DNA from: a virus
Lineage: Duplodnaviria > Heunggongvirae > Uroviricota > Caudoviricetes
Virus record (IMG/VR): IMGVR_UViG_2565956711_000008
Reading direction: 5' to 3' (one strand)
Length of the DNA: 9,461 nucleotides
The notes under the pieces are model-generated. The model was not told the DNA's origin. It ran no database searches and saw nothing but the letters and a program-made list of their open reading frames with translations. Of this stretch, positions 1-9,396 are shown one piece after another; positions within the stretch are counted from its first letter, which is position 1; each line of letters starts with the position of its first letter. The position numbers and the translations under genes are program-made.

Positions 1-1236
1 CTATGATAACCGCGCATTCAACATGGCTACCTGTTCGTCGTTCATGTCATCAATCCACATACCGTAAATTTCATACACCATCTGCGCAGTTTCATGCCCC
101 ATTTGGCTGGCTATAAATGCCGGGTTCGCTCCTGCCGTCAACAGCCAGCAGGCAAAAGTATGCCGCGTATGGTACGGATTACGGCGGCGAATACCAGCAC
201 GTTTTACTGCTGCATTCCACCTTGCCCCCAAACTGCTTACCGAGTAATAAGGTTTTTGTTTTCCGTTACACACCCTGGGCATGAAAACAAAATGCAGTTT
301 TTGCTTTTCGGTTCTGCCGTACTCCCGATGATAAAAGGTGATTTCGCTTTTGCGATGATGCCCGGTCAGTTTGTATTGCTCCTTCAGTGCTTCAAGAGCA
401 GGCTGCAGTAGTGTTACCGTCCGGATCCCCGCATTTGTTTTTGGGGGACCGAACATATCCAGTATCGTCAGGTTTCTTCTGACATTCACAACTCCCTTCT
501 CGAAATCCACATCCTCCCACGCCAGAGCAGCCAGTTCCCCGTGACGAAGCCCGGAGTATACGGCAAATTTCCACAAGTTCTGGCTCTGTCCTTTTTCACT
601 TTCCATTAATGCATTGAATTCTGTTTTAGATAACGGGTCAGGCTTTATTCTGTTTCTCTGTAATTTCTTTACTCCTTCAAATGGTTTGGTTGATATAAAT
701 CCCGACTGATACGCAAAACGTAACAACGAACAGAGCAGGGCGATATAGTTATCAACTGTGCGCACGGTTCTTCCTTTTTTGTTGGATCTTGGATTATCCA
801 GGTAAAGCGTTTCTCCATGCAGCAGTTCATTCCGGTAGTTTAAGATATCGCTATAACGAATATGCGATATCGGAGTACTCTCACAAATTATTATCCTGAG
901 TGTTTTTAATTGTGATTTCGTTTTCTTCATTGTGTTTGTTGTTAACTCTGTTTCTTTAATTTTTGTCCAGATATCACAAAGCTCCCCGAACGTTTTTATG
1001 ACCCTCGTTGTCACCATTTTTGCCCCAGTGCTGGACTGGGGAAAACGTCTTAAATACTCAAACTCACCGGAATTGATTTCATGAACTATCAACGCTCTTA
1101 AATTCCCGGCTTTTTTAATGTTACTGTTAGTAACCTCCCAGCCTTTCAATGTTTCCCGACATCGTTTTCCTCGAAACATGAACCAGATGCGAATGTATTT
1201 ACCTCGAATCTCGACACCTGTTGGTAATTTAGACAT
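1..1236 (-). CDS. intR: Tyrosine-type site-specific integrase, Rac prophage IntR-like
   Basis: Uninterrupted 411-aa ORF with stop at 1-3 and ATG at 1234-1236. N-terminus MSKLPTGVEIRGKYIRIWF and overall sequence match my recollection of Rac IntR. C-terminal region carries the tyrosine-recombinase signature (HTRHTFACWL ... YEIYGMW). An excisionase-like ORF ends 2 nt upstream, the usual xis-int arrangement. Confidence 0.93.
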   Translation of the reverse strand: MSKLPTGVEIRGKYIRIWFMFRGKRCRETLKGWEVTNSNIKKAGNLRALIVHEINSGEFEYLRRFPQSSTGAKMVTTRVIKTFGELCDIWTKIKETELTTNTMKKTKSQLKTLRIIICESTPISHIRYSDILNYRNELLHGETLYLDNPRSNKKGRTVRTVDNYIALLCSLLRFAYQSGFISTKPFEGVKKLQRNRIKPDPLSKTEFNALMESEKGQSQNLWKFAVYSGLRHGELAALAWEDVDFEKGVVNVRRNLTILDMFGPPKTNAGIRTVTLLQPALEALKEQYKLTGHHRKSEITFYHREYGRTEKQKLHFVFMPRVCNGKQKPYYSVSSLGARWNAAVKRAGIRRRNPYHTRHTFACWLLTAGANPAFIASQMGHETAQMVYEIYGMWIDDMNDEQVAMLNARLS

Positions 1237-1237
1237 A

Positions 1238-1453
1238 TCATGAGTCTTTGATAAACTGATTTATCTTTGGATAGTTATACCAGATAATCCCTCGCTTACT
1301 GTCTGGCTTCCCTAAAGGAGATACTCGTTTGAAGTGGAAGCCTTCCACCCAACAGTTCTGGCGGTATGCTTCAATTTGTCTGGCCCCCAGACCAGTGCGA
1401 AGCATCAGGCCGTATTCAACCATCCACTCTTCATTAAAGATTACTTGTGCCAT
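1238..1453 (-). CDS. xisR: Excisionase-like small protein (Rac XisR/YdaQ-like), 71 aa
   Basis: ORF in the track spans 1238-1477 from a TTG. The in-frame ATG at 1451-1453 ([14 protein letters not shown]...) is preceded by AGGTGA 5 nt upstream, so I take that as the start. Stop TGA at 1238-1240 lies 2 nt before the int ATG. Small and int-adjacent; name by recollection of Rac ydaQ. Confidence 0.72.
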
Positions 1454-1552: not shown

Positions 1553-1741
1553 TCACGAGGACTGAAGTTTCTCGCAATTAAAATTTATCAGTTTTACTTT
1601 CTGCTCTCTGGAAACGCCTGCTTCTTTTTTACCTGAGAGCATTTTTTCGCATTCTGATTTCGTTAGTTTAGATTTTGAATATCTTGTCCAGTTAGTAGGA
1701 GTGCCACCTTCCTTTTCAATAGTGGCGGTAATTTTATACAT
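1553..1741 (-). CDS. ydaC: Small Rac prophage protein of unknown function (YdaC-like), 62 aa
   Basis: ORF MYKITATIEKEGGTPTNWTRYSKSKLTKSECEKMLSGKKEAGVSREQKVKLINFNCEKLQSS. ATG at 1739-1741 is preceded by GGAGGTG and is embedded in the last codons of the ralR frame (overlapping genes). Position between xis and ralR matches the Rac gene order I recall. Confidence 0.6.
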   Translation of the reverse strand: MYKITATIEKEGGTPTNWTRYSKSKLTKSECEKMLSGKKEAGVSREQKVKLINFNCEKLQSS

Positions 1742-1928
1742 GAACACCTCCATTATTATTTCCAGTGGTTCGTTTATTTCATCGTTCGAGTGCTTCTTTT
1801 TCACTTCCACCATAACCGGTTCGGGATTCGCATCCGTTACACTTCGCTCGGTAATATCCTGAAATGGCTTTCACCGTTACTGATGGACAACCACAAAATG
1901 GACATGGTTTAACATTGTCATATCTCAT
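1734..1928 (-). pseudogene. ralR: RalR (Lar) type I toxin / restriction-alleviation gene with an internal in-frame TGA
   Basis: From ATG 1926-1928 the frame reads MRYDNVKPCPFCGCPSVTVKAISGYYRAKCNGCESRTGYGGSEKEALER, then TGA at 1779-1781, then continues open as NKRTTGNNNGGVHV to TAA at 1734-1736, overlapping the ydaC ATG. My recollection of RalR has Trp (TGG) at the stop position, so this looks like a TGG-to-TGA change giving a 49-aa product. Confidence 0.62.
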
Positions 1929-1976: not shown

Positions 1977-1996
1977 GGCTGAATTATTCCTCTGAA

Positions 1997-2794
1997 TTAT
2001 CGATTACACTGTATTCCCCCGGTTAATACAGAGGAATCTGCAGGATCGATTGTCAGTGGTTCCTTTTCATCCATTGATACTGCACGCTGGATCTCAATTG
2101 ATACGGGCAGATATTTGAACAGGCGACGAATAGCCGTTTTCTTTGCCATTTCTTCCCAGTGAGTTACCCACGGCCCGTTATTACCAGCTTTACTCTGGCT
2201 GCGCACCAGCTCAATCTGTTTGCGCGTCATAACTTCAAACTGAGTACCTCCGTCTTTCAGTCTTGCGACAGCATAGACGTGGGTAACAGGGGCATCTTCG
2301 TTTTCTCCTGGGCGGTGTATTAACTTTTCATCAAGGCCAAATTCGAAATTAAACTCGTCACCTTCACGGACAACACGGGCTGACAAGCTGGCGATTTGAC
2401 CTGAACGGCGAGCCAGATCAATCATGCCGCGATAGCCAATGATTAGCTGAACGTTTTTTTTACCGCTCTTTTCGTTTTTATTACCAAAAGGCAGTAAATA
2501 TGCATGACCGAGGGCGCTACCGGGCTCAAGTCCGAGCTGTGAACACTGTACGATTGCACTGACAAAACTCATAGTGTCACAGTTTCCTAACGCCGGAACT
2601 TTACGAATTTCTGTGGTGGCGATACGGATCATACGTTCAGCCGTCATATGGCGTGGAAGAGCTGCTGCCAGTTGCTCTTTCATTGATGGCTGGTTAATAA
2701 AACTAATCACGTCGTTATTTTTAATTGCTGCTGGTGCACGGTTTCCCTGAGTTTTTTGCAGATCGGCTTTTGCGATTGGTGGTTGCTTAGTCAT
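1997..2794 (-). CDS. recT: RecT single-strand annealing recombinase, with altered C-terminal tail
   Basis: ORF from ATG 2792-2794 ([21 protein letters not shown]...) to TAA 1997-1999; AAGGAA lies upstream. Start overlaps the recE stop (ATGACTAAG), the classical recE-recT coupling. Matches my recollection of RecT except the last residues, which read GIQCNR instead of [10 protein letters not shown]. Confidence 0.9.
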
Positions 2795-4137
2795 TTGCAT
2801 ATTCCTTAGCCCAGCGGGGCAGTGATAACGTCTTAATAGCTGGCCATTCATCGGTATTGAGGCAGTCAGCCAGGGTTCGCAGATTGCGGTGATATTCCAG
2901 CTGACCTGCCAGTTTTGCTTCTTCGCCCATCATGAAAATTTCAACCGGATAACGTCCGCATTCAATAGTTGTGCTGGCAACCAGAAAAACGAAAGTTGGC
3001 TGCACTCCAAACTGTGCTTCATAACCGTCACTGTAGAATGCATCCTGAACGTGATAGCGGTAGTCGTAATAAGCGGTTTTGAATCGTTGAATATCCGCCG
3101 TAGTTTTCACGTCCATGATCCAGTGAAATTCAGGGATAATTTTGTCCGGACGGCACCGACACAAAATTGCTGTTTCAGGATCTTCCCAGTAAATTGATGA
3201 TTCAGCGTGTCCGGCGCTTTCAACAAGCCATTGCCCCAGCGGCAAAGCCATAACGCTCTGATACATGAGTTCAATTTTCCGGCCTTCTTCGGCAGTGATA
3301 ACCGTTTTTCCTGTGCTTGCGCATTCCCTCAGAAACGCTTTCTCTTCTTCTTTTCCGGAGTTTGTCCGGCGGTTAAATTCAGGTGCTACGATAAAGCGGT
3401 TACTGAATTCTTCCGGCTCAAGTACCCGGCAGTGGAAAGCGGTTCCTAAATCGAGCGTTTTTGTCTTTGTGGTGTCCACGGGGGCATTTTTACGCCACAA
3501 ATACAGTGCCGGAGTATCAGCAATGTCATCGAGCTGAGACTTACTGACACCGGGACCCGCGTGGTAATTCTCATTCGAAATTCCGTAATAAATACCTGGC
3601 TCTATGTCTTCTACGATTACGGGATCTGCGACTTCGCCAGTTTCATCACTGCAATCGCGATGCGGATCGCTGCCAGCATTCTCATTGTGCGGATGTTCAG
3701 CGCCTTCCATTTCCTCCGGATCATTTTCCTTAGCTTCAACCTGACTCTCTTCATCGAATGTTTCCTGGTATGTTGCGTCGCCCATCACCGCACCACAGTC
3801 AGGGCAGTTATCCCCGCCAGTCTGGCCGCAGGCATTGCAGGCTATTTCCGGTTCCTGTTGCACTACTGGCTCAGGTTGATTCATATCCGGGCTGGTTTTT
3901 TCCGTTTCTGGCTGGTTCTGGTACACACAATCGCGAGTCTGGATCCCCTTTACCCATTTCGGATCGTTCGGGTCGCTAATTCCGTCAACAAATTCACCAC
4001 GTGATGCAGCAAGCAATTTATCGGCATCGACAGGATTTTTTGATGGAATGTTTTTCCGGGCTTCATGGAGTTCTGCCCGCAGTTCCTGATATTTCGCATC
4101 AACAGAATTTACCTGTGACTGAGCATCCAGCGGCTGG
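2787..4137 (-). pseudogene. recE: 5'-truncated recE (exonuclease VIII) remnant retaining the complete C-terminal nuclease domain
   Basis: Minus-strand frame is open from the stop at 4182-4184 down to TAA 2787-2789. Translation from about 4137 downward ([23 protein letters not shown]...[10 protein letters not shown]...[13 protein letters not shown]) matches roughly the C-terminal half of RecE as I recall it. No recE N-terminal half is present; upstream the frame runs into antisense IS1. First in-frame start is the TTG at 4014-4016, with no obvious Shine-Dalgarno. Confidence 0.85.
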
Positions 4138-4351
4138 CTGGCCGCTGTATGAATCCCGCCTGAAGGGAAAGCTGCACGTAATCAGCAAGCGATATACGCA
4201 GCGAATTGAGCGGCATAACCTGAATCTGAGGCAGCACCTGGCACGGCTGGGACGGAAGTCGCTGTCGTTCTCAAAATCGGTGGAGCTGCATGACAAAGTC
4301 ATCGGGCATTATCTGAACATAAAACACTATCAATAAGTTGGAGTCATTACC
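4135..4351 (+). mobile_element. Partial IS1 (3' terminal ~217 bp: insB 3' end and right terminal inverted repeat)
   Basis: Plus-strand translation [66 protein letters not shown] equals the C-terminus of IS1 InsB as I recall it. It is followed by the IS1 terminal sequence AAGTTGGAGTCATTACC ending at 4351. The rest of IS1 is absent. Confidence 0.85.
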
Positions 4352-4551
4352 GCGCTCTTTACTCATTCGTTTACAACGTGGGTGCTGGCAATTTCAGAAC
4401 ATCGACGCTTCTTCGCAAAATAAACCAGGGCGATATCAAAGGCGCATGTGATCAGCTACGTCGCTGGACATATGCTGGCGGTAAGCAATGGAAAGGTCTC
4501 ATGACTCGTCGTGAGATTGAGCGTGAAATCTGTTTGTGGGGTCAGCAATGA
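4352..4551 (+). pseudogene. 3' fragment of a lambdoid phage lysozyme (endolysin R-like) gene, truncated by IS1
   Basis: Immediately after the IS1 end the frame reads [65 protein letters not shown], the C-terminus of the lysozyme family I recall from E. coli lambdoid prophages. Stop TGA at 4549-4551 overlaps the Rz ATG (ATGA). No N-terminal catalytic part and no start codon. Confidence 0.8.
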
Positions 4552-5012
4552 ACAGAGTAACCGCGATTATCTCCGCTCTGGTTATCTGCATCATCGTCTG
4601 CCTGTCATGGGCTGTTAATCATTACCGTGATAACGCCATTACCTACAAAGCCCAGCGCGACAAAAATGCCAGAGAACTGAAGCTGGCGTACGCGGCAATT
4701 ACTGACATGCAGATGCGTCAGCGTGATGTTGCTGCGCTCGATGCAAAATACACGAAGGAGTTAGCTGATGCGAAAGCTGAAAATGATGCTCTGCGTGATG
4801 ATGTTGCCGCTGGTCGTCGTCGGTTGCACATCAAAGCAGTCTGTCAGTCAGTGCGTGAAGCCACCACCGCCTCCGGCGTGGATAATGCAGCCTCCCCCCG
4901 ACTGGCAGACACCGCTGAACGGGATTATTTCACCCTCCGGGAACGACTGGTAATGATGCAGGCCCAACTTGAAGGTGCTCAGCAATACATAACCGAGCAG
5001 TGTTTAAAGTAA
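4548..5012 (+). CDS. rzpR: Rz-like inner-membrane spanin, 154 aa
   Basis: [55 protein letters not shown]... is near-identical to lambda Rz as I recall it: N-terminal transmembrane helix, coiled-coil periplasmic domain. ATG overlaps the lysozyme-fragment stop. Confidence 0.88.
4768..4953 (+). CDS. rzoR: Rz1-like outer-membrane lipoprotein spanin, embedded in the +1 frame of Rz
   Basis: [57 protein letters not shown]...: signal peptide with lipobox (VVGC) and the proline-rich mature region typical of lambda Rz1. Wholly nested inside Rz. Confidence 0.85.
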
Positions 5013-5149: not shown

Positions 5150-6607
5150 ATGAATACATCTCATGTAAGAGTTGTTACTCATATGTGTGGGTTCTTGGTT
5201 TGGCTCTATAGTCTTTCAATGTTGCCACCAATGGTTGTAGCATTGTTTTATAAAGAAAAAAGCCTGTTCGTTTTCTTTATAACTTTCGTTATATTTTTTT
5301 GCATTGGTGGCGGAGCGTGGTATACAACTAAGAAATCTGGCATTCAATTACGTACCCGTGATGGGTTTATTATAATTGTAATGTTTTGGATTTTGTTTTC
5401 TGTTATTAGTGCATTCCCTTTATGGATTGACTCAGAACTTAATTTAACGTTCATTGATGCTCTGTTTGAAGGGGTTTCTGGAATAACAACAACAGGAGCA
5501 ACTGTAATTGATGATGTTAGTTCATTACCTCGGGCATATTTGTACTATCGGTCACAGTTAAATTTTATAGGTGGTTTAGGAGTTATTGTTCTGGCGGTTG
5601 CAGTATTGCCATTATTGGGTATTGGTGGTGCAAAGCTTTATCAGTCAGAAATGCCGGGGCCATTTAAGGATGACAAACTCACTCCCCGCCTGGCCGATAC
5701 GTCACGGACACTGTGGATAACTTATTCTTTATTAGGTATTGCTTGTATTGTCTGTTATAGACTTGCAGGAATGCCTTTGTTTGATGCTATTTGTCACGGG
5801 ATTTCCACAGTTTCGCTTGGTGGTTTCTCAACTCATAGCGAGAGTATCGGATATTTTAATAACTATTTGGTTGAGCTGGTGGCTGGTTCTTTTTCCCTGC
5901 TATCGGCTTTCAACTTCACTCTTTGGTATATTGTTATTAGCAGAAAAACGATAAAACCTTTAATCAGAGATATTGAACTTCGTTTCTTTCTGTTAATAGC
6001 CTTAGGGGTGATCATTGTTACCTCTTTCCAGGTCTGGCATATAGGTATGTATGACTTGCATGGAAGTTTTATTCATTCGTTTTTTCTTGCCAGCTCCATG
6101 CTCACTGATAATGGTTTAGCTACGCAGGATTATGCAAACTGGCCCACGCACACGATAGTGTTTTTGCTGTTGTCAAGTTTCTTTGGGGGATGTATAGGTT
6201 CAACCTGTGGTGGAATTAAGTCACTTCGATTTCTTATACTTTTCAAACAAAGCAAACACGAGATAAATCAGCTTTCTCATCCCAGAGCGTTGTTGAGTGT
6301 AAATGTAGGAGGGAAGATAGTTACAGATCGTGTAATGAGGTCTGTATGGAGTTTCTTTTTTCTTTATACTCTCTTCACGGTGTTTTTTATACTGGTGTTA
6401 AATGGTATGGGATATGATTTTCTTACATCATTTGCAACAGTGGCTGCATGTATTAATAATATGGGATTAGGTTTTGGGGCTACTGCATCGTCATTCGGAG
6501 TGCTTAATGACATTGCAAAGTATTTAATGTGCATAGCTATGATTCTTGGTCGCCTTGAAATTTATCCTGTTATTATATTGTTTTCAGGTTTTTTTTGGCG
6601 CTCCTAA
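5150..6607 (+). CDS. trkG: TrkG potassium uptake protein (TrkH/TrkG family), 485 aa
   Basis: ORF MNTSHVRVVTHMCGFLVWLYSLSMLPP... to TAA 6605-6607, matching my recollection of Rac TrkG. Multi-pass membrane protein with the family glycine motifs (e.g. TTTGATV, GGLG). Markedly AT-rich relative to flanking phage genes. The ORF is also open from TTG 5132, which has a better-spaced Shine-Dalgarno. Confidence 0.9.
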   Translation: MNTSHVRVVTHMCGFLVWLYSLSMLPPMVVALFYKEKSLFVFFITFVIFFCIGGGAWYTTKKSGIQLRTRDGFIIIVMFWILFSVISAFPLWIDSELNLTFIDALFEGVSGITTTGATVIDDVSSLPRAYLYYRSQLNFIGGLGVIVLAVAVLPLLGIGGAKLYQSEMPGPFKDDKLTPRLADTSRTLWITYSLLGIACIVCYRLAGMPLFDAICHGISTVSLGGFSTHSESIGYFNNYLVELVAGSFSLLSAFNFTLWYIVISRKTIKPLIRDIELRFFLLIALGVIIVTSFQVWHIGMYDLHGSFIHSFFLASSMLTDNGLATQDYANWPTHTIVFLLLSSFFGGCIGSTCGGIKSLRFLILFKQSKHEINQLSHPRALLSVNVGGKIVTDRVMRSVWSFFFLYTLFTVFFILVLNGMGYDFLTSFATVAACINNMGLGFGATASSFGVLNDIAKYLMCIAMILGRLEIYPVIILFSGFFWRS

Positions 6608-6766: not shown

Positions 6767-8812
6767 TCTAACGGGAAATACACCGCACAGGATGCAACGA
6801 CAGCACAGAAAGGGATAATCCAGCTAAGCAGCGCGACCAACAGCACGTCTGAAACGCTGGCGGCAACGCCAAAGGCAGTAAAATCAGCCTATGACAATGC
6901 AGAGAAACGTCTGCAGAAAGACCAGAACGGCGCTGATATACCCGATAAGGGACGCTTCCTGAACAACATTAACGCGGTCAGTAAAACAGACTTTGCTGAT
7001 AAGCGTGGTATGCGTTATGTGCGGGTTAACGCTCCTGCAGGTGCAACATCTGGAAAATATTACCCTGTTGTTGTTATGCGTTCTGCTGGCTCAGTAAGCG
7101 AACTGGCATCAAGGGTCATTATCACCACGGCAACGCGAACCGCAGGCGATCCGATGAATAACTGCGAGTTTAACGGATTTGTTATGCCTGGTGGCTGGAC
7201 TGACAGGGGGCGTTATGCTTATGGAATGTTCTGGCAATATCAAAACAATGAACGAGCCATCCACTCAATAATGATGAGTAATAAGGGCGATGATTTGCGC
7301 TCTGTGTTCTATGTTGATGGCGCTGCTTTCCCTGTTTTTGCGTTTATCGAAGATGGCCTGTCAATATCCGCACCTGGTGCTGATCTCGTTGTTAATGATA
7401 CGACCTATAAGTTTGGGGCAACAAATCCAGCGACTGAATGTATCGCGGCGGACGTTATCCTTGATTTTAAGAGTGGGCGTGGTTTTTATGAGTCTCATTC
7501 GTTAATCGTTAACGATAACTTGTCGTGCAAAAAACTTTTTGCCACAGACGAAATTGTAGCGCGTGGTGGTAATCAGATTCGAATGATAGGTGGGGAGTAT
7601 GGGGCATTATGGCGTAATGATGGCGCTAAAACTTACCTGCTGCTTACCAATCAAGGTGATGTTTATGGTGGATGGAATACATTAAGACCGTTTGCTATTG
7701 ATAACGCAACCGGCGAACTGGTTATTGGAACCAAGCTGTCTGCAAGTCTGAACGGTAACGCATTGACAGCAACAAAGCTGCAAACGCCAAGACTGGTTTC
7801 TGGGGTTGAGTTTGATGGTTCAAAAGATATTACTTTAACCGCCGCGCATGTGGCTGCTTTTGCCAGAAGGGCAACGGATACATATGCCGATGCGGATGGT
7901 GGCGTTCCCTGGAATGCCGAATCAGGCGCTTACAATGTCACCCGCTCTGGCGACAGCTATATTCTGGTTAACTTCTATACCGGAGTCGGAAGTTGCCGGA
8001 CCCTGCAGATGAAGGCGCATTACAGAAATGGTGGTCTGTTCTACCGTTCTTCAAGAGACGGTTATGGTTTTGAGGAAGACTGGGCAGAAGTTTATACCTC
8101 GAAAAATCTTCCACCAGAAAGCTACCCAGTCGGCGCACCAATCCCGTGGCCATCAGATACCGTTCCGTCTGGTTATGCCCTGATGCAGGGGCAGACTTTT
8201 GACAAATCTGCTTACCCGAAACTTGCAGCCGCTTATCCGTCAGGCGTGATCCCTGATATGCGTGGCTGGACGATTAAGGGCAAGCCCGCCAGTGGTCGGG
8301 CCGTATTGTCTCAGGAACAGGACGGCATTAAATCACACACCCACAGCGCCAGCGTATCCAGTACGGATTTGGGGACGAAAACCACATCGTCGTTTGATTA
8401 CGGCACTAAATCCACGAATAACACTGGTGCGCATACTCATAGTTTAAGTGGCAGCACGAATGCAGCTGGTAATCACAGCCATAGAGATGGCCGTCGATTT
8501 AACCCCAGTGTTTTTAAAGATACTTATCAATATGGTTATACAAGCTCAGGTCAAAATACCTGGGGTGTACAAGGCTCAGTAGGTATGTCTACGGGGTGGT
8601 TAGCTAATACCAGTACAGATGGTAATCATAGCCACTCACTGTCCGGCACAGCAGCATCTGCAGGTGCACACGCGCATACTGTCGGTATTGGTGCTCATAC
8701 GCACTCCGTTGCGATTGGTTCACATGGACACACCATCACCGTTAACGCTGCTGGTAATGCGGAAAACACCGTCAAAAACATCGCATTTAACTATATTGTG
8801 AGGCTTGCATAA
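6767..8812 (+). pseudogene. stfR: 5'-truncated side tail fibre gene (lambda Stf / Rac StfR-like), C-terminal ~680 codons
   Basis: Frame is open from the stop at 6764-6766 to TAA 8810-8812. From about 6790 it reads [31 protein letters not shown]..., the conserved internal tail-fibre motif (lambda Stf has it mid-protein). It ends [31 protein letters not shown], identical to the lambda Stf C-terminus as I recall it. No N-terminal region is present; the first in-frame ATG is at 7010 and lacks a good ribosome-binding site. Confidence 0.85.
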
Positions 8813-9396
8813 TGGCATTCAGAATGAGTGAACAACCACGGACCATAAAAATTTATAATCTGCTGGTCGGAACTAATGAATTTATTGGTGAAGGTGACGC
8901 ATATATTCCGCCTCATACAGGTCTGCCAGCAAACAGTACCGATATTGCACCACCAGATATTCCTGCTGGCTTTGTGGCTGTTTTCAACAGTGATGAGGCA
9001 TCGTGGCATCTCGTTGAAGACCATCGGGGTAAAACGGTTTATGACGTGGCTTCCGGCGACGCGTTATTTATTTCTGAACTCGGTCCGTTACCGGAAAATG
9101 TTACCTGGTTGTCGCCGGGAGGGGAATATCAGAAGTGGAACGGCACAGCCTGGGTGAAAGATGCAGAAGCAGAAAAACTGTTCCGGATCCGGGAGGCGGA
9201 AGAAACAAAAAACAGCCTGATGCAGGTAGCCAGTGAGCATATTGCGCCGCTTCAGGATGCTGCAGATCTGGAAATTGCAACGGAGGAAGAAACCTCGTTG
9301 CTGGAAGCCTGGAAGAAGTATCGGGTGTTGCTGAACCGTGTTAATACAACAACTGCACCGGATATTGAATGGCCAACAGTACCCATTATCGAATAG
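8812..9396 (+). CDS. tfaR: Tail fibre assembly protein (lambda Tfa-like), 194 aa
   Basis: [51 protein letters not shown]... to TAG 9394-9396. ATG overlaps the stf stop (TAATG). Size and position immediately after stf match the lambda stf-tfa pair. Confidence 0.88.

Follow-up and report, generated by a model that had tools for sequence, protein, structure and literature searches.

A common natural nonsense codon at Trp50 of the Rac prophage gene ralR in Escherichia coli and the probable loss of its toxin

Introduction

[quoted passage not shown] Among the results described in that report are changes at residues 14, 37, 39, 49, 51, and 52 of RalR, obtained by error-prone PCR, that reduce toxicity, a purified variant altered at residue 52 that does not cleave DNA, and a recoding of residues 43-46 that abolishes toxicity. 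The same report defines a 16-nt complementarity between RalA and ralR, and it refers to chromosomal type I toxins that were inactivated by point mutations or IS insertions, e.g., the hok homologues of K-12 (PMC4041452). RalR is a member of the Lar family (PF14354, TIGR03655), in which a zinc ribbon (CPFCG...CxxC) is followed by a helix, and in which the domain ends with an invariant WNxR motif.

Here we report on a stretch of DNA of 9,461 bases, referred to in the following as the window, that represents a heavily reduced Rac prophage (~9.4 kb) adjoining ttcA. It shares with the K-12 Rac prophage the gene order ttcA-intR-xisR-rcbA-ralR-recT-recE, and RalA, the 16-nt repeats, and the overlap of ralR with rcbA are all as in K-12. 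While 193 of the 195 ralR bases are identical to those of K-12, the encoded product comprises only 49 amino acids and lacks W50, N51, K52, and R53. The window RalR thus has the zinc ribbon and the beginning of the helix in common with the Lar family, whereas the invariant domain end remains untranslated. The same protein is present in RefSeq as WP_001443846.1 (e.g., from E2865, EC09, and O26/O111/O103 STEC), and at least 301 bases of the underlying DNA are identical to the window. E2865 has intact recT and recE genes on the flank, whereas the window has a frameshift in recT and an IS1 remnant that cuts recE. As in the K-12 hok homologues, a toxin gene appears to be disabled while the antitoxin RNA remains; unlike theirs, the lesion in the window consists in the conversion of one Trp codon to a nonsense codon. 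Gene, antitoxin, and protein family are already known, and RefSeq contains the allele; our literature search for truncations or pseudogenes of ralR found no paper that discusses it. We consider it likely that the window carries an inherited W50* allele of the Rac ralR gene, the toxin most likely being disabled.

Results

The ralR reading frame ends at codon 50

An earlier note on this DNA had described an in-frame TGA in ralR, 14 open codons behind it, and a TAA overlapping the start of ydaC. Translation of the sequence and its alignment with K-12 bore out all coordinates of this description, and alignment and gene order upheld the assignment of the gene as ralR of the Rac prophage. The features concerned are the following:

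1779-1928, minus strand: truncated ralR ORF, 49 sense codons plus the premature TGA; product identical to RefSeq WP_001443846.1
1779-1781, minus strand: codon 50, TGA (W50*); TGG in K-12 and in all other alleles compared
1734-1778, minus strand: 3'-terminal part of the original ralR gene, with 14 codons in frame (NKRTTGNNNGGVHV) and the old TAA

The minus-strand translation of positions 1734-1928 reads MRYDNVKPCPFCGCPSVTVKAISGYYRAKCNGCESRTGYGGSEKEALER, a stop, NKRTTGNNNGGVHV, and a second stop. The plus-strand letters at 1779-1781 are TCA, corresponding to TGA on the minus strand, and with the ralR frame ending at codon 50 the ORF for the 64-amino-acid toxin is absent. The old TAA codon of ralR (1734-1736) and the ATG codon of the next ORF (1739-1741) are joined in an 8-base overlap, ATGTATAA, that is also present in K-12. 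When the window was aligned with both K-12 MG1655 and E2865, two positions within ralR were seen to differ from K-12: position 1779 is T in the window and C in K-12, yielding TGA instead of TGG (Trp), and position 1784 is G in the window and T in K-12, yielding CGA instead of AGA in codon 49, with Arg encoded by both. The 14 post-stop codons and the TAA match K-12 base for base. Since the lesion is a one-base, deterministic difference from a characterised gene, chance is not at issue.

In front of the gene, at positions 1938-1940, an A-run is one A shorter than in K-12. This places an upstream ATG in the ralR frame (MRKIMRY...), and ORF finders accordingly report 53 amino acids; some RalR database entries likewise begin further upstream.

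The RalA antitoxin and rcbA are retained

The surroundings of the premature stop contain the following elements:

1557-1735, plus strand: RalA antitoxin sRNA (Rfam RF02694, 225.1 bits against a gathering score of 170, model positions 1-179 of 179)
1619-1634, plus strand: RalA segment complementary to the 16-nt ralR repeat, located by sequence; repeat as defined in PMC4041452
1791-1806, minus strand: 16-nt RalA target repeat in ralR (AAGTGAAAAAGAAGCA, codons 41-46), situated upstream of the stop and retained
1553-1741, minus strand: DUF1187/rcbA (ydaC) ORF, 62 amino acids (Pfam PF06688, 132 bits; annotated WP_001302840.1)

The RalA gene lies antisense to rcbA/ydaC and shows zero differences from K-12 across its range in the alignment; both 16-nt repeats are unchanged as well. 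A Shine-Dalgarno sequence, GGAGG, is located at 1747-1751, within the post-stop stretch of ralR and five bases ahead of the rcbA ATG. Because DUF1187/rcbA possesses its own Shine-Dalgarno sequence, it should be unaffected by W50*. At this locus, the RalA sRNA would be an orphan, its neighbouring toxin gene being either dead or strongly attenuated.

At the other end of rcbA, the stop codon at 1553-1555 is TGA in the window and in all other natural alleles compared, which gives a protein of 62 amino acids. K-12 alone possesses AGA at this codon and a 69-amino-acid RcbA; the K-12 reference is the outlier here.

The truncation removes a family-invariant motif

A library-wide HMMER search retrieved 1,690 relatives of RalR, and we assessed conservation in an alignment of 60 listed representatives of 90 amino acids or less against K-12 RalR. 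Among these 60 Lar-family proteins, W50 and N51 are found in all and R53 in 59, a degree of conservation comparable to that of the four invariant Cys residues (60/60). None of the 60 ends before position 54, and residues 55 to 64 of the tail are not conserved. With codon 50 being TGA, the invariant W-N-x-R motif falls outside the translated product. An AlphaFold2 model of a 92%-identical, 64-amino-acid homologue (pLDDT 72.8, i.e., of moderate confidence) contains strands at 17-22, 25-30, and 36-40 and a single helix at 43-57, which a stop at position 50 cuts in half. A sequence search of the PDB yielded no Lar-family relative, only weak and irrelevant matches to CbpD, and a Foldseek comparison of the model with the PDB gave nothing at E <= 0.001, merely weak resemblances to zinc ribbons.

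Translation of the W50* allele would end after Arg49. The product would retain the zinc ribbon but, of its single predicted helix, no more than the first half, and the Trp50-Asn51-x-Arg53 motif would be missing. Since the invariant residues W50, N51, and R53 are lost and mutants at residues 51 and 52 are impaired, we infer from family conservation and the published point mutants that the 49-amino-acid RalR is most likely non-toxic and DNase-dead.

Possible leaky decoding of the UGA codon

Leaky reading of UGA probably allows the W50* allele to yield some wild-type RalR of full length, and readthrough is the only rival explanation that carries some weight. The TGG-to-TGA change is the one nonsense change that is partly reversed to the wild-type residue by tRNA-Trp: the near-cognate Trp-tRNA(Trp) occasionally decodes UGA, and the wild-type 64-amino-acid RalR would be made by a small share of the ribosomes, amounting perhaps to a few percent at most. 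The gene would then be attenuated and not dead, supplying a low and cell-variable dose of toxin that is possibly kept by selection. In E. coli K-12 reporters, UGA readthrough amounts to ~2% at 37 C and to 4% at 25 C; its level depends on the competition between Trp-tRNA(Trp) and RF2 and differs among single cells (PMC10570021). Apart from this reporter range of about 2-4%, the retention of RalA and of its ralR target and the occurrence of W50* on Rac copies that look complete speak for a leaky gene. The stop codon is moreover followed by A, and UGA-A is reportedly among the weaker termination contexts, according to work of Poole, Brown and Tate from 1995.

Natural isolates generally possess a more active RF2 than K-12, so readthrough in them is likely below the K-12 figures, and our Rfam scan found no stimulatory RNA element. 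The 14 post-stop codons, in frame and undamaged, can be claimed for readthrough, but a young nonsense mutation explains them equally. The 42 bases concerned are without decay, which fits either a short elapsed time or continued constraint; they are not decisive because divergence is minimal and the rcbA ribosome-binding site lies in the same stretch, and they carry no sign of selection. On balance, we regard it as unlikely that W50* leaves the toxin merely attenuated. Quite improbable in our judgment is a stronger version, in which W50* is a selected "dimmer switch" that delivers wild-type RalR at roughly a hundredth of the dose and with cAMP-dependent cell-to-cell variation; were it true, both RalA and the post-stop codons would still be needed.

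The 49-amino-acid product keeps the zinc ribbon

All four residues of the zinc ribbon (C9, C12, C30, and C33; CPFC...CxxC) are kept in the truncated product. It scores 126.9 bits with the RalR equivalog model NCBIfam NF007260 (cut-off 113), 39 bits with PF14354 (Lar_restr_allev; cut-off 28.6), and 40.3 bits with TIGR03655 (cut-off 39.6), although for PF14354 this is a drop from the 53.5 bits scored without the truncation. The W50* product is named RalR in RefSeq because its 49 amino acids still exceed the NCBIfam cut-off.

That the product exceeds the thresholds of the Pfam, TIGRFAM, and NCBIfam models, retains all four Cys residues, and comes from a frequent allele might be taken to indicate a functional short isoform that works without the C-terminal helix, e.g., in restriction alleviation or partner binding. 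We hold this to be improbable: W50, N51, and R53 are conserved like the zinc ligands, with 0/60 relatives ending before position 54, a point change at residue 51 or 52 is enough to cut toxicity or DNase activity, and the helix is halved in the AlphaFold2 model. The same features nevertheless count against our overall reading of a disabled toxin insofar as some residual function, such as binding or restriction alleviation, may persist. A reference RalR that ends at the same position does exist in the form of WP_001443846.1, but this entry stems from the same W50* allele and hence does not show the short RalR to be canonical.

The W50* allele is common in E. coli

We searched 5,426 complete E. 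coli genomes with an 81-base probe centred on the stop. The exact W50* allele was present in 308 of them, and the K-12 version of the 81-mer in 1,110, many of which are laboratory derivatives. Since about 1,900 of the complete genomes contain ralR in any form, roughly one in six ralR-bearing genomes carries W50*. The carriers include Shiga-toxin strains of serotypes O26, O111, and O103 and many human clinical isolates, and at least 40 complete genomes match the 301 bases around ralR at 100% identity. In a large protein collection, the exact 49-amino-acid protein occurs on at least 1000 contigs, labelled RalR and "MULTISPECIES", while a 30-mer spanning the TGA had no exact match among the GTDB species-representative genomes. 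RefSeq WP_001443846.1 ([quoted passage not shown], 49 amino acids) is annotated as an ordinary CDS of 150 nt, and not as a pseudogene, in both E2865 and EC09. In E2865, the allele stands beside a full-size recT of 810 nt and a recE spanning 2,601 nt, both of the same size as in K-12, and the identical 301 bases are also found in three ~38-kb records that were submitted as complete phage genomes; their annotation lists normal recT and exonuclease VIII genes of full length.

W50* is a common natural nonsense polymorphism, which the earlier note had read correctly. The same note had allowed for a sequencing error; this reservation is removed by the 308 base-identical complete genomes and the at least 1000 contigs. 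A sequencing or assembly error is barely credible, and so is a mutation private to this isolate, as the TGA is in addition base-identical in the three phage records and is a substitution, not a homopolymer indel. What lends the idea some colour is the homopolymer +1 in recT, a change almost unique to the window, which shows that some lesions of this DNA are private or possibly artefactual.

Direction and origin of the change

Sequence comparison indicates that TGG is the ancestral state of codon 50. All six other E. coli alleles that we fetched (O145, O157:H7, AF14, SCU-172, CDE6306, and TUM9803), ~80% to 99% identical in the ralR region, carry TGG, and the homologues of Salmonella and Citrobacter read RWNKR or RWNRR with the Trp kept. 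The alignment and these homologues thus support the proposal of the earlier note that the stop replaces a canonical Trp50 through one G-to-A change. Programmed recoding of the UGA as selenocysteine, for which nothing beyond the in-frame UGA itself can be adduced, can be dismissed, since every relative compared has Trp and never Cys or Sec at position 50 and a search for SECIS or other Rfam elements on the ralR strand from 1400 to 2100 (E <= 1) gave none, the matches being RalA on the opposite strand and two at chance level.

CGA TGG at codons 49 and 50 is confined to the O157/O145-type allele, which has a further difference, and a "repaired" 81-mer, with CGA TGG on the window background, occurs in none of the 5,426 complete genomes. 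Between positions 1500 and 4136, three sites distinguish the window from E2865, and each of these two sequences differs from K-12 at roughly 35 sites. The complete linkage of the stop with the CGA codon and the surrounding haplotype leads us to infer a single origin of W50*: one G-to-A transition, from TGG to TGA, would have occurred on a Rac haplotype distinct from that of K-12, and this haplotype would later have spread to a large minority of E. coli strains. The description of the mutation as recent does not hold, since 308 complete genomes share the identical allele, it is found on at least 1000 contigs, and no other state was seen on its Rac haplotype.

A database protein with Ser at position 50 (P0002) was considered as a pseudo-revertant of the TGA and rejected; its DNA reads AGA TCG and is therefore derived from TGG on a K-12-type background. 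Towards the integrase end of the window, ~45 SNPs within 418-1487 (intR and xisR) separate it from both E2865 and K-12, and this end looks like a recombination mosaic.

The remainder of the Rac prophage

We derived the gene order of the window from its list of ORFs together with the annotation of a near-identical genome, that of E. coli EC09 (NZ_CM169492; 99.9% identity across all 9,461 bases). Besides the elements given above, the window comprises:

1-1236, minus strand: intR
1238-1453, minus strand: xisR
1984-2794, minus strand: recT, with one extra base in the C-run at 2012-2016 (alignment, EC09 annotation)
to ~4136, minus strand: 5'-truncated recE
4136-4336, plus strand: IS1 remnant
4354-4551, plus strand: partial rrrD
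4548-5012, plus strand: lysis gene
5150-6607, plus strand: trkG
6791-8812, plus strand: partial tail-fibre gene
8812-9396, plus strand: tfaR

The five differences between the window and EC09 are substitutions clustered at 8299-8953, in the tail-fibre and tfaR genes.

The C-run of recT reads CCCCC in the window and CCCC in K-12 and E2865, and the additional base shifts the C-terminus of RecT to ...LTGGIQCNR followed by a stop. An exact 61-mer with this frameshift was found in a single one of the 5,426 complete genomes, that of EC09, where the gene is annotated as "frameshifted". The lesion private to the lineage of the window is the recT frameshift and not W50*; it is either truly recent or a homopolymer error. 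The recE gene is cut at its 5' side by the IS1 remnant, which is followed by the partial rrrD.

No other gene is found between recE and the lysis genes, the central region of Rac being deleted. In K-12, this region holds racC, racR, and others together with the early promoters, and ralR may consequently lack its normal transcription in the window.

The earlier note had proposed loss of the toxin in the course of prophage domestication. The loss of function stands as the most likely outcome; its connection to the decay of this particular remnant does not, for the allele is also found beside intact recT and recE genes and in the complete-phage records.

Discussion

The relevance of the W50* allele of ralR lies mainly in annotation and in the design of experiments. 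In roughly one of six complete E. coli genomes with ralR, including those of the major O26, O111, and O103 lineages, the gene specifies a RalR that RefSeq names as an intact toxin and that is devoid of family-invariant residues needed, according to experiment, for toxicity. Surveys of toxin-antitoxin systems and work on Rac in pathogens should count a ralR gene with W50* as probably null or hypomorphic and its RalA as an orphan. The allele reveals no new kind of system; it is an annotation caveat, and an unsurprising one.

The database proteins P0012 and P0015 are fusions of RalR with DUF1187. In P0012, the junction (GGSEKE joined to AGVSREQ) coincides exactly with the two 16-nt direct repeats of RalA and ralR, which points to a repeat-to-repeat deletion as a second natural route by which ralR, and ralA with it, is lost.
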